The notes: generated by a model from the sequence alone, not told the origin. Positions 55,840-62,206 are shown, counted from the first letter of the whole stretch. The stretch is DNA of 62,998 nucleotides, filler included, from Reclinomonas americana ATCC 50394 (GCA_048213135.1; 4 parts of 2 records of this genome joined end to end with filler, not necessarily neighbours in it), one strand, 5' to 3'. Numbers and translations: made by a program.

Positions 55840-57195
55840 ATGGATTTCGAGAACGCCCAAGTTGGAGGCAGTGGATCAGCTCCTCCTCTTCCTCTTCCTC
55901 CTCCTGCTCCAGAGGATGACCGTCAGATTGTTCTCGAGCAAACAGCGTGTCGTGGTGGTGAACTGGGGTGTGCATGGCGTGGGATTGATGGAGAGAGGGA
56001 GGAGCACGAGCGAGTGTGTGATGTGTTGCGCGTTGAGCGACCACTGCGAGAGGTGCGTGTTGAATGATGGGCATTGGATGATTGCTTGTCAATACATGCA
56101 GCTGATATGAGCACAGCTGCATGGTCGGGTGCGGGAGCTGTCGCAGATGGTGGCGCAGGAGAGAGAGGCGCGACAAGCGGTTGAAGAGCGTCTGACTCGC
56201 GAGCAGCAAGCCGCGAATGAGCGGCTTGCCATGGAACAACAAGCACGACAAGGTGTTGAGGAGCGACTTGCCATGTGCGCTGAGCAACTTGGATCCGAGC
56301 GGCGCATGCGTGAAGCTCTCGAGAGAGGTGTTGCTGAGGTCTGTTGTGTGAATGTCGGTGGCTCATCCGAGTGCTCCTCTCCTAATCTTGTCTGCAGCTG
56401 CTCGCCCGTCTCGAGCCACTGGAGATACGTGAACGGGAGATCCAGGAACGAGAGGCAGCTGAGCGGGAGCGTCAAGCCAGACAACAGGAGGAGCGGGAGC
56501 GGCAGGCCAGGGAGCAGGAGGAGCGAGAGCGGGTGGCGAGGGAACGAGAGGAGCGCGAGCGAACGCAGATACGGAAGAGCGATCTGCTGAGTGCGGCGGA
56601 TGCGCGAGTGGTGTTGCAGTGGGTGCAGCAAGCGCGAGGTGGCGGTGGGAGTGTGCCCAAGTTGACGTTGCTGTTCAAGGGCAGTCGAGATGGTTTTGCG
56701 GTAGCCACATTCCATCAGCAATGTGACAACCGTGGGTGAGTGATTGTGGAGAGGAGAGTCGGCTTGTTGTGATCGGTGACTGATGAGTGTGAGTGCCTTT
56801 CGTGTAGACCGACGCTGACGGTGATCAAGTCGTCGACGGGAAGAGTGTGTGGCGGATACACGCCTGTCTCGTGGCTGTCTGCGGGAAGCATCTGGGCCGC
56901 CGATCCATCCGGCACCAGCTTCTTGTTCTCGGCGTCGCGGACTGGTGCAAGTACGCGGCGCTTTGCGCTGAAGACCGAGTCGAAACATCAGGCCGTCTGC
57001 TACAACATTGAATACGGACCTTTCTTCGGCGGTTCCGATATCGCCTTGGTTGACAATTGCAACAGCAACAGCAGCAGCAGCAGTTACTTTCCTGCCCACT
57101 ATCAGAGCACTGATGGTGGAGCATGTGACAGAACGACGTTGATGGGATCGCAGTTCTTCCAAGTAGCAGACTACGAAGTCTTCCTCGTTGAGTGA
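55840..57195 (+). CDS. TRAF-like TLDc protein copy 1, lacking RING and zinc fingers 1-4
   Basis: Exons 55840-56052, 56117-56338, 56398-56735 and 56808-57195. One finger (CRGGELGC..EHERVC), coiled coil, ER-rich helix, then TLDc (LLFKGSRDGF..FHQQCDNRGPTLTVIKS..GGYTPVSW..SFLFS..GPFFG..YEVF). Confidence 0.88.
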
Positions 57196-57298
57196 AACAC
57201 CATGTTGCCTCAAAGTTGTCGATTCGGAGAAGGCTGCTACTTCGTAAAGGCAAAAGACTGTGTGGATGACGGGACATCTTGACAGCCATTGTGAAGTC

Positions 57299-57676
57299 AT
57301 GGGTTTCGAAGACGCGCACGTGGGAGGTGGTGGTGGAGAAGGCAGTGGAGCTCCTCTTCCTCCTGCTGCTGCAGAGGATGACAGTCAGGTTGTTCTCGAG
57401 CAGCAAGTGCTTCGACTCACTGGCCAGGGTGACCGTGCGGAACAATATGTGTTTTGTGTGGTGCGCGCTGTGCATCGTCGCCGTCCTTCCGAAGTGGGAG
57501 AGAAAGAGAAGGAAGCACCGCGTTTGTGGATGGAGAATGTGGCGGAGGAGTCACGAGTGTTGGCGGACGAGTATCTGTGTCCAGTGTGCTTGGTGAGTGA
57601 GTGTGTTGAAGAGAGAGAGAGANNNNNNNNNNNNNNNNNNNNCGAGAGAGAGAGAGAGAGAGAGAGCTGTGCGCTG

Positions 57677-57713
<37 letters not shown>

Positions 57714-60014: not shown

Positions 60015-60051
<37 letters not shown>

Positions 60052-60149
60052 CCACTCGTGATACTCACTCTCTGTGCTGCAGGATCTGTGTGCTCCGGAT
60101 TTTGTGTTGTGTGCCAGCGGGCTACATTATGTGTGTCGGTGAGTGAGTG

Positions 60150-60196
<47 letters not shown>

Positions 60197-62206
60197 GAGA
60201 CAAGCTGTGCGCTGACTCTCTCTCTCTCTCTGTTGATTGCATGCGTCAGTGAGCATGTGACGGAGGCTGGTGCGGATCTGTGTGGCGATGGAGTCACGTC
60301 GCTGGCCACTCTGCGTGAACTCCCACCGCGTGTCCTGCTGACATACCGCAATGTGAAGGTTGGGTGTGCTTGTCGTTGTTTGTGTACGCAAGTCGCCAGT
60401 GATGTTGACATGTGGGAGCACCACAGATCACATGCCCGCTATGCCACGCACCCATGGTTTGTGTTTGTCATGGAGAGTTGGTTGTCTTGTTTTCTCTCTC
60501 CTCACGGTGGATGGGCAGACGGTGGGCGACTATTACCGCACACATGGCCTCACGCAGTGTCCGTATGCATGCGAGAGATGTGGACAGCAGATGACACTGG
60601 ATCGCACGGCGGAGCACGAGTGGAGTGGATGCTTGCGCGAGTGTCCGCTCGGATGTGGAGCGAGGCTTGCGCTGAGTGAGATGGTGGAGCACAGCTGGAG
60701 TGGGTGCATGCGAGCGTGTCCACGTGGATGTCAGCAGCAGTCTTCATTGGCGGAGATGCAGCGGCATCTTGGTGAGTGTGCTTTGACGGAGAGAAGTGTG
60801 TCATGACACTGATTGTTCTCTCGTGACAGACACGGAGTGCCGACTGCAGCATACAGTATGTCGTGGTGGTGAACTGGGGTGTGGATGGCGTGGTGTCATT
60901 GGTGAGAGGGAGGAGCATGAGCGAGTGTGTGATGTGTTGCGAGTTGAGCGACCACTGCGAGAGGTGGGTTTTGCAGATGCGCAGTGGATGTTGCTGGTCA
61001 TTCAAGCAGCTTATGTTGCTTATGTTTGTGAGCGCAGCTACATCACCGAGTACGAGAGCTATCGCAACTGGTGTCTGACAGCAGGGAGCAGTTGGCGCAC
61101 GAGCGAGAGGCGAGACAAACCACAGACGAGCGGCTGGCCGCTGAGCAACGGGCGAGGCAAGTTGATCGTGAGCAGCTTGCCGATTGTGTGGGGATGCTTG
61201 TCGAGTGCCGGCAGCAACTGGCTACTGAACGAGAAGAGAGACGAGCTGCCGAACAGACCGAGCAGCGCTTGCGTGAAGCTCTCGAGGAAGGTGTTGCTGA
61301 GGTTTGTTTTGTGAATGCTGATGAGCTTCGACTGCATCGCCCTCTCCTCACTCTATCTACTTTCCATCTGCAGTTGCTCGCCCGTTTCGCGCCGCTGGAG
61401 ATGCGTGAACGAGCGATTCAGGAACGCGAGGCGGCTGAACGCGAGAGGCTGGCCAGAGAGCAGGAAGAACGGGAGCGGCTGGCCAGAGAGCAGGAGGAGC
61501 GAGAGCGGCAAGCCAGGGAGCGGGAGGAGCGTGAGCGCGAGGCGAGGGAACGAGAAGCGCGTGAGCGGGCGGAGAGGAAGATTAACAGCAGCGATCTGCT
61601 GAGTGCTGCGGATGCGCGAGTGGTGTTGCAGTGGGTGCAGCAGGCGCGAGGTGGTGGAAGTGTGCCCAAATTGACGTTGCTGTTCAAGGGCAGCCGAGAT
61701 GGGTTTGCAGCACGCACATTCCATCAGAATTGCGACAATCGTGGGTGAGTGAGAGAGGATTTGGGTGTAGAGCGAGCTTGTTTTGCTCGTTGACTGATGA
61801 GTGCGTGGCTGCGTGCAGACCGACGCTGACTGTGGTCAAGTCATCGACTGGACGAGTGTGTGGCGGATACACACCTGTCTCGTGGACATCCACGAGTGGG
61901 AGTTGGGGCGCCGATCCGTCCGGAAGCAGCTTCTTGTTCTCGGCATCGTGGAGTGGTTCAAGTGCGCGACGATTTGCACTGAAGGATGGCAAGAAACAGT
62001 ATGCCGTTGTGCACGGCTCTGGTCGTGGACCTACCTTTGGCAGCAACGATGTCTACTTGGTGGACAGCTGCAACAGTAGCAGCAACAGCCTCAGTAACCT
62101 TCCATACTACTATCCGAGCACTGACGGTGCAGCATGTGACAACACGACACTGATGGGATCGCAGTACTTCCAAGTGGCAGACTACGAAGTCTTCCTCGTT
62201 GAGTGA
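59705..62206 (+). CDS. TRAF-like TLDc protein copy 3 (complete)
   Basis: RING-like CPVCLDLCAPDFVLCASGLHYVCREH...LCGD, five TRAF-type fingers, an extended coiled coil, four ERERxARExE units and TLDc ending YEVFLVE-TGA. Confidence 0.9.

Follow-up and report, generated by a model that had tools for sequence, protein, structure and literature searches.

Three tandem paralogues in Reclinomonas americana with RING-like and finger motifs, a coiled coil and a C-terminal TLDc domain

The window analyzed here, i.e., the whole stretch of 62,998 bases from Reclinomonas americana ATCC 50394 (GCA_048213135.1), is draft eukaryotic nuclear DNA interrupted by 25 runs of N. Between the ATG at 55840 and the stop codon at 62206, it contains an array of three paralogues that lie head to tail on the + strand (copy 1, 55840-57195; copy 2, 57299-59606; copy 3, 59705-62206). 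The presence of three paralogues had been claimed in an earlier reading of the bare sequence (the sequence-only reading), and three approaches agree with it. Repeat analysis of positions 55000-62998 revealed repeat families with a period of ~2.4-2.6 kb; mapping of copy 3 onto the upstream DNA gave 2128 identical bases among 2404 aligned in copy 2 and 1189 among 1493 in copy 1; and a tblastn search of the 62,998-base window with the copy-3 protein found the three array copies only. The array most likely encodes a small lineage-specific family of modular scaffold proteins, and its units are plausibly separate nuclear genes that arose by tandem duplication in a eukaryote with a compact genome and many introns.

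The full-length member of the family is copy 3, which has the following features:

59705-60001, 60083-60138, 60250-60460, 60519-60771, 60830-60963, 61038-61301, 61374-61744 and 61819-62206, + strand: the eight exons of copy 3, full-length, 657 aa
59987-60289, + strand: RING-like motif, aa 95-131, split by introns 1 and 2 and read from the spliced translation
60365-60433, + strand: finger 1, aa 157-179, C-x3-C-x11-H-x3-H, found by a regular expression on the gene model and present only if exon 3 reaches 60460
60558-60930, + strand: fingers 2-5, aa 202-226, 230-251, 255-276 and 283-306, finger 4 being split by intron 4
61038-61301, + strand: coiled-coil exon, aa 318-405, with heptads
61374-61589, + strand: E/R-rich helix, aa 406-477, with 23 E and 21 R in 72 residues
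61590-62203, + strand: TLDc domain, aa 478-657, split by intron 7 (61745-61818)

These exons are separated by seven introns, all of the GT-AG type and 58-111 nt long, and the only stop codon in the coding sequence of 1974 nt is the terminal one. At the motif level, the protein reads as a variant RING-like motif, five CCHC/CCHH fingers, a coiled coil, an E/R-rich helix and a TLDc domain. The RING-like motif has eight candidate ligands in the pattern C-x2-C-x10-C-x4-H-x2-C-x2-H-x8-C-x-D, and the five fingers (aa 157-306) follow the pattern C-x(3-6)-C-x11-H-x(3-4)-C/H. The sequence-only reading had ascribed this architecture to full-length copies in the plural. It holds for copy 3 at the motif level, but is doubtful for copy 2, which has an N gap, a TGA and a GC donor (see below).

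The finger part and the TLDc part of copy 3 might be thought to lie on separate transcripts, the fused model then being an artefact. The model is indeed based on sequence alone. However, a single frame runs through all seven introns, neither a stop nor a start signal lies between the two parts, and copy 1 retains the join of finger 5, coiled coil and TLDc after the deletion described below. Fingers, a coiled coil and TLDc are also united in one predicted protein in P0112, a metagenomic relative discussed later. An artefactual fusion is, thus, extremely unlikely.

The number of fingers depends on the gene model. An alternative intron, 60359-60518, keeps the frame in both long copies and would leave four fingers. 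The five-finger model, with exon 3 extending to 60460, is the preferred prediction for copy 3. A 3-base indel is the sole difference between the two long copies in the region of finger 1, and finger 1 has the same D/E-M-x-E-H ending as fingers 3 and 4. Another model, in which a mini-intron of 34/37 nt after NVK is followed by read-through to exon 4, was rejected, as such an intron, ending in AAG, would fall well below the length of the other seven; separate +2 and +1 indels in the two copies, which would shift the coding frame, also speak against it. N-myristoylation of the MG start was considered and rejected as well, since Phe follows Gly2 and copy 1 begins with MD; the PROSITE myristoylation rule disallows Phe in the position following Gly2.

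The C-terminal domain is a TLDc domain, and the proteins belong to the TLDc superfamily. The Pfam family TLD (PF07534, cut-off 24.5 bits) matches the last exons of all three copies, with 46.4 bits (E 5.5e-12) in copy 1, 53.1 bits (E 4.7e-14) in copy 2 and 48.6 bits (E 1.1e-12) in copy 3. These exons cover the profile from position 45/49/50 to position 169 of 170, and exon 7 of copy 3 supplies positions 4-51 (E 0.0026). An AlphaFold2 (AF2) model of exon 8 of copy 3, built from a 35-sequence alignment, reached a predicted local distance difference test score (pLDDT) of 94.5 and covers 128 of the ~180 TLDc residues, the domain being split by an intron. When this model was compared with the PDB by Foldseek, the 13 matches listed up to rank 15 were all TLDc domains, with template modelling (TM) scores of 0.61-0.69, a probability of 1.00 and E values of 2.5e-3 to 2.5e-2; no match had an E value of 1e-3 or lower, and the next matches after the TLDc set had E values above 1. 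The structures matched are those of NCOA7, NCOA7-AS, mEAK7, Skywalker/TBC1D24, Oxr1 and zebrafish OXR2, and they include the vacuolar ATPase (V-ATPase)-bound forms of NCOA7B, mEAK7 and Oxr1. The near-invariant Gly and Glu columns in the TLDc alignment of the relatives are retained in all three copies. A MATH domain was not matched by Pfam in any exon or open reading frame (ORF) of the three copies, nor was a BTB domain or a pentapeptide repeat in any exon. The earlier claim that TLDc takes the place of MATH is, thus, borne out by both profile and fold.

The coiled coil was modeled as three chains of the coiled-coil exon. The chains are parallel and in register, with a score of 0.75 vs. 0.02 for the best of three controls; the model runs agree in at least 98% of the contacts, and the pLDDT of the partner is at least 85. 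The score mark used was reached by 21 of 30 microbial one-chain pairs and by none of 23 single chains, and by 17 of 29 and 0 of 30, respectively, in eukaryotes. This calibration was made with two copies of a chain, whereas three were used here, and the run cannot separate a trimer from a dimer. Self-association of the coiled coil is, therefore, supported by the model, but the number of chains is not fixed by it, and of the trimeric family proposed in the sequence-only reading the association is supported while the trimer is not told from a dimer. Two insertions, of 7 and 11 residues, both of which keep the register, lengthen the coiled coil by 18 residues in copy 3 relative to copy 2 (58522-58731); that of copy 1 differs by two insertions of 2 residues. 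The E/R-rich stretch that follows is presumably a single helix of the ER/K type, as its composition and the general literature on such helices suggest.

The other two copies depart from this layout, each in its own way:

55840-56052, 56117-56338, 56398-56735 and 56808-57195, + strand: exons of copy 1, short form, 386 aa, an open frame with three GT-AG introns
57299-57592, (exon 2 unseen), 57733-57946, 58008-58260, 58323-58456, 58522-58731, 58804-59144 and 59219-59606, + strand: exons of copy 2, of doubtful integrity, mapped from copy 3
57623-57642: assembly gap of 20 N in copy 2, at the expected place of exon 2, which encodes the central part of the RING-like motif
57854-57856, + strand: TGA in the frame of copy 2, within the stretch for finger 1, where copy 3 has TGT (Cys)

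In copy 1, the N-terminal 34 aa are joined in frame to finger 5, which is followed by the coiled coil, the E/R helix and TLDc; the RING-like motif and fingers 1-4 are absent, and the tblastn pieces match copy 3. Since the ends of the junction fall within exons 1 and 5 of the long form, copy 1 is best read as shortened by an in-frame genomic deletion and not by alternative splicing. In copy 2, no counterpart of exon 2 of copy 3 was found, as the gap at 57623-57642 lies there. The last intron of this copy has a GC donor, and its remaining frame is open apart from the one TGA. Copy 2 may be decaying or mis-assembled. The N gap sits inside a microsatellite, which is the probable cause of the assembly break; extended microsatellites of the (GA)n/(CT)n and (GTGA)n types occupy introns 1 and 2 in both long copies as well as the end of the window (60010-60060, 60150-60235, 57600-57720 and 62880-62998).

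The copies are separated by two short spacers:

57196-57298, + strand: spacer between copies 1 and 2, 103 bp
59607-59704, + strand: spacer between copies 2 and 3, 98 bp

Conserved spacers of ~100 bp had been noticed before, and they are indeed identical in 90 of 97 aligned bases; neither spacer shows similarity to the sequence 5' of copy 1. The nucleotide identity of copies 2 and 3 amounts to 94% in exon 1 (272/288) and 93% in the spacers, and goes down to 82% in the last exon, and the synonymous divergence (dS) climbs from 0.07 at the N-terminus to 0.53 in the coiled coil. Since the identity of the spacers equals that of exon 1 and dS rises in the 3' direction, their conservation is attributed to gene conversion, by which a 5' tract including the spacer looks to have been homogenised recently. 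Spacer conservation as a functional signal was considered and rejected, as it is at the same level as that of the adjoining exon 1.

The spacers also bear on the question whether the array is one long gene or is transcribed polycistronically. A possible donor, GA/GTGAAAC, spans the stop codon of copies 1 and 2, a GACAG acceptor is found 13 nt upstream of the next ATG, and a GT-AG join of successive copies (57192-57285 and 59603-59691) would be in frame; alternatively, the GACAG acceptor might serve trans-splicing. The small size of the spacers, ~100 bp only, would suit such a unit, and chains with 3-8 TLDc domains are common among the nearest relatives. However, the two junctions are mutual copies and, thus, constitute a single observation with a chance of ~1 in 3 of being in frame. 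Moreover, every unit has its own conserved ATG and ends at position 169 of the 170 of the TLDc profile, and copy 1 has a similar start, yet an unrelated upstream region. The next unrelated gene is likewise located just ~205 bp from copy 3, so that short intergenic spacers appear to be normal in the window, as in a compact genome. A single gene, a shared transcript or trans-splicing is, accordingly, highly unlikely, and the three units are further treated as separate genes.

The ratio of nonsynonymous to synonymous divergence (dN/dS) between copies 3 and 2 is 0.20 in the fingers, 0.20 in the coiled coil, 0.09 in the E/R-rich stretch, which is the most constrained part of the protein, and 0.46 in TLDc; comparisons with copy 1 gave values of 0.16-0.42. 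As proteins, the finger exons of the two long copies share 93% identity. TLDc is, thus, the least constrained domain (0.42-0.46 vs. 0.09-0.30 in the other domains), with all values below 1. As judged from these ratios, purifying selection acts on all parts of the proteins, and no sign of positive selection was found in the domain-wise dN/dS among the three copies. This bears on another explanation, i.e., that the array is decaying duplicated DNA with at most one working copy and no special role for a family. The TGA, the GC donor and the gap in copy 2 would fit decay, as would the origin of copy 1 as a deletion derivative, the draft state of the window with its 25 N runs, and the lack of a close homologue of the N-terminal half in the collections searched. 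On the other hand, dN/dS values of 0.09-0.46 are found in all shared domains and in both pairs, all frames are open save for the one TGA, the indels of 7 and 11 residues in the coiled coil kept its register, and the splice sites are conserved across the three copies. Decay of the array as a whole is, thus, quite improbable.

Relatives of the array proteins were sought by means of the TLDc domain. A profile built from the three TLDc exons found 3517 proteins with E values of 0.001 or lower in a representative library. Only nine of these reach 1e-30, all of them multi-TLDc or distant proteins, and many of the nearest relatives contain 3-8 TLDc domains per chain. A Pfam scan was performed on 151 TLDc relatives in two sets of 32 and 119 proteins, with 25 of 27 families listed for the latter. 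Among the matches listed, the heads found before TLDc were BTB_2 in 16 proteins, BTB-BACK in three, B-box in three (two with fn3), RING in one and Sina-like fingers in one. Examples are P0013, which contains a Sina_RING, a protein kinase domain and five TLDc domains; and P0103 and P0111, with a TRIM-like B-box, fn3 and TLDc. BTB, BACK, SPRY and TLDc are combined in P0153, another database protein. In P0003, seven TLDc domains precede an apparent membrane anchor. As far as can be told from these predicted proteins, TLDc recurs in ligase-adaptor layouts and is widely shuffled. The proposal that TLDc serves as a recognition head is supported in principle by its position behind BTB_2, BTB-BACK, B-box, RING and Sina-like heads among the 151 relatives.

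The combination of zf-TRAF and TLD in one architecture, for which a search had been proposed, was not encountered, as zf-TRAF was absent from the matches listed for the 151 proteins, but P0112 came close. In this protein of 516 aa, from a metagenome of an unrelated AT-rich source, one predicted chain combines fingers similar to those of Sina and TRAF6, a long coiled coil and, at the C-terminus, a TLDc domain. Its Sina_ZnF match (E 1.8e-5) is below the cut-off, and its best relatives in the PDB are TRAF6 RING-finger chains (E 0.037-0.052). A search with P0112 yielded 12 further proteins, which match over only 29-40% of its length; precomputed Pfam assignments show no TRAF- or Sina-type fingers among these 12, and a B-box in P0158 and P0162. 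P0112 shares with copy 3 the fingers, the long coiled coil and the C-terminal TLDc, but it has three fingers, lacks an E/R helix and is cut off at the N-terminus. A direct comparison of the finger exon of the window with P0112 was not significant (BLASTP E 0.36, hhalign E 0.27), and P0112 probably arose by a fusion of its own or is related only very distantly. Thus, a layout of fingers, coiled coil and TLDc appears to be present elsewhere and to be rare among the sequences searched, and homology of the N-terminal parts is not demonstrable.

Searches with the fingers gave little else. A word-index search for homologues of the finger exon returned four candidates, none of which scored, and in the metagenome contigs neither relatives of the finger exon nor relatives by the TLDc profile were found. 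Five loci on viral contigs (L001-L005) were dropped as meaningless, as only 15-17 residues around the search patterns matched, and an alignment of single fingers was too poor to serve as a profile.

In the literature searched, TLDc was not found together with a TRAF-type zinc finger or with TRAF and RING, and a TLDc domain and a RING finger co-occurred in unrelated literature only. A BTB-BACK-TLDc protein, on the other hand, is described in insects, i.e., Bmmp of Bombyx and CG7102 of Drosophila, with a reported developmental phenotype (bioRxiv 10.1101/2021.07.26.453796). TLDc behind a ligase-adaptor head is, therefore, not new in itself.

Several known systems resemble copy 3 in part. In animal TRAFs, a RING is followed by several CCHC fingers, a parallel coiled coil and a recognition domain at the C-terminus, and the RING-like motif, fingers, modeled coiled coil and TLDc of copy 3 are arranged in the same order. 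Unlike TRAFs, copy 3 has no MATH/TRAF-C domain and has TLDc there, it has an E/R-rich helix between the coiled coil and the head, and its inter-finger linkers are shorter, the last Cys of a finger being separated by 3 residues from the first Cys of its successor. In TRAF6, the RING ends in an Asp ligand, and finger 1 lies ~28-29 residues past the last RING Cys. Presumably, copy 3 resembles TRAF6 in both respects when the five-finger model is followed. Copy 1 is presumably comparable to TRAF1, which we take to have no RING and a single finger. SIAH/Sina proteins, too, have CCHC fingers after the RING, and we assume that the CPVC start and the C-x-SG-x-H-x2-C core of the RING-like motif in copy 3 are similar to those of the Sina RING. 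Copy 3, however, lacks the substrate-binding β-sandwich of SIAH/Sina and has a long coiled coil and TLDc. On paper, the window proteins are, thus, similar to TRAF/SIAH adaptors, but they are members of neither family, as they lack MATH and their fingers do not reach the profile cut-offs.

In the BTB-BACK-TLDc, BTB_2-TLDc and B-box-fn3-TLDc proteins, as in copy 3, TLDc occupies the C-terminal slot that is held by Kelch, SPRY or MATH domains in cullin-3 adaptors, TRIMs and TRAFs. Their head, however, is a BTB or B-box domain instead of a RING with CCHC fingers. OXR1, NCOA7, mEAK7 and TBC1D24 share the TLDc fold with the window proteins, which also have an acidic stretch just upstream of it, comparable to the poly-E of Ncoa7 and Tldc2 (PMC8608904). 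In contrast to the window proteins, none of these four has a RING, fingers or a coiled-coil stalk. TLDc proteins have been studied almost solely as small V-ATPase regulators, in animals and yeast.

The most economical reading of these data would be that the proteins are E3 adaptors. We consider it about as probable as not (roughly 0.5) that the family consists of oligomeric ubiquitin-ligase-like adaptors aimed at a TLDc ligand and encoded by three separate genes. In such adaptors, two or three chains would be held together by their coiled coils, and the stiff E/R-rich single helix would act as a spacer in front of TLDc. Target binding would fall to the TLDc heads; the target may be the V1 sector of the V-ATPase, by analogy with the TLDc proteins studied, or another partner. 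The Sina/TRAF-like variant RING and the four or five fingers would recruit an E2 or bind ubiquitin. Copy 1 could enter the same bundles as a regulator without a RING. The domain order is unusual without being unprecedented, and would be a fairly modest variation on known domain shuffling. If true, TLDc on an oligomeric stalk with RING and fingers would suggest that a TLDc ligand is under ubiquitin-dependent control, as would the versions with BTB, BTB-BACK and B-box.

A considerable number of observations weigh against this reading. The RING-like motif is non-canonical, with x4 between ligands 3 and 4, a His as ligand 6 and a terminal C-x-D, and it may fail to bind an E2. For the fingers, Pfam zf-TRAF (PF02176) gave E 2.3 (9.4 bits) and E 5.4 (8.2 bits) on the finger exon alone, with a cut-off of 27 bits, so that the label "TRAF-type" given to them in the sequence-only reading is unconfirmed by a profile; Sina_ZnF (PF21361) gave E 2.9 on the same exon, which does not place them with SIAH/Sina either. 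For exons 1, 3 and 5, Pfam gave no match at E values up to 10. In a search of PDB sequences, exon 3 had no matches and exon 5 a single, irrelevant one (E 6), whereas the five matches of exon 4 were all C2H2 or unrelated (best E 6e-4). AF2 gave the finger exon, with an alignment of two sequences, a pLDDT of 38.9, and the Atlas gave no usable match for exon 3. When aa 1-317 of copy 3 were compared with all 163 fetched proteins by blastp and phmmer, nothing was found at E below 1. Finger 1 itself is encoded by GT-rich DNA that resembles the 5' ends of the introns of copy 3, and copy 2 has a stop codon there. Moreover, the case rests on one draft locus.

The V-ATPase as a target is also weakened by such observations. 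All five mammalian TLDc proteins are reported to bind the V-ATPase, and a poly-E motif N-terminal to TLDc tended to aid this binding, though not significantly (PMC8608904). However, the TLDc of the array is distant from the solved binders, with 14-20% identity to them in the fold alignments, and the profile of the TLDc exons had no matches among PDB sequences at E 0.01. To propose the V-ATPase as the target would, thus, be an extrapolation.

The weakness of the RING-like motif invites a different explanation, in which the proteins are non-catalytic adaptors, not E3s: the RING would be degenerate, and ubiquitin-binding fingers would bridge ubiquitinated cargo to a TLDc partner. In autophagy and NF-kB adaptors, fingers of the UBZ and CCHC types are known to bind ubiquitin. 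Among Pfam families, zf_UBZ comes closest to the finger exon, with 23.8 bits (E 3.6e-5) for copy 3 and 21.0 bits for copy 2, both just short of the cut-off of 25.6 bits, but this sub-threshold match spans only 19 residues of one finger. The odd ligand spacing in the RING-like motif and the maintenance of an intact copy 1 without a RING would also suit adaptors of this kind. However, the positions and spacing of the Cys/His pairs remain compatible with a cross-brace RING that ends in Asp, an arrangement that we take to be that of TRAF6. Furthermore, a feature search in the Atlas by means of a language model gave zf-TRAF for all of the 10 best named matches of the finger exon, and UBZ for none, with a score of 0.93 and 166-168 shared features (guide value 170). 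The C-x3-C-x11-H-x4-C spacing is compatible with a TRAF-type finger. Since the Atlas lookup is the sole pointer to the TRAF type and no profile confirms it, the assignment of the fingers to this type is not proven. On balance, non-catalytic adaptors are a possible but rather unlikely alternative to the ligase-like adaptors favored here.

A broader version of the ligase reading may be envisaged. Throughout eukaryotes, TLDc might be a general, interchangeable recognition head of ubiquitin-ligase scaffolds of the TRAF/SIAH-, TRIM-, KLHL- and KCTD-like types, and the array might be a protist set of multimeric E3s that ubiquitinate or monitor the V-ATPase on phagosomes and lysosomes. A RING-less paralogue would then act as a regulator, and a cell-autonomous surveillance of the acidification of organelles would be diversifying by tandem duplication. 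This scenario is speculative and, in our view, decidedly doubtful. Also a role in immunity would have an indirect basis, as its sole link is by analogy with the TLDc proteins that have been studied.

The surroundings of the array are those of ordinary nuclear DNA. On the - strand, the window contains intron-split genes with Pfam matches, and the following exon fragments belong to such ordinary eukaryotic genes:

19168-21193, - strand: nucleoside transporter
22713-24069, - strand: SYF1/CRNKL1-type HAT repeats
27344-27877, - strand: RRM
37077-38345, - strand: ammonium transporter
40909-42399, - strand: sortilin/VPS10
52132-52719, - strand: kelch repeats

Scans of the window with Rfam and for tRNA genes gave no matches. 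The DNA 5' of copy 1 (54004-55839) consists, after a gap of 453 N, of 1.4 kb of low-complexity, CT/GA- and CA-rich sequence with long spurious ORFs on both strands, in which Pfam found no match. On the other side of the array, the next gene (62411-62530, + strand) starts ~205 bp past copy 3 with a signal-peptide-like opening (M-F-K-R, followed by a Leu-rich stretch), and its frame seems to stop at a GT donor near 62546.

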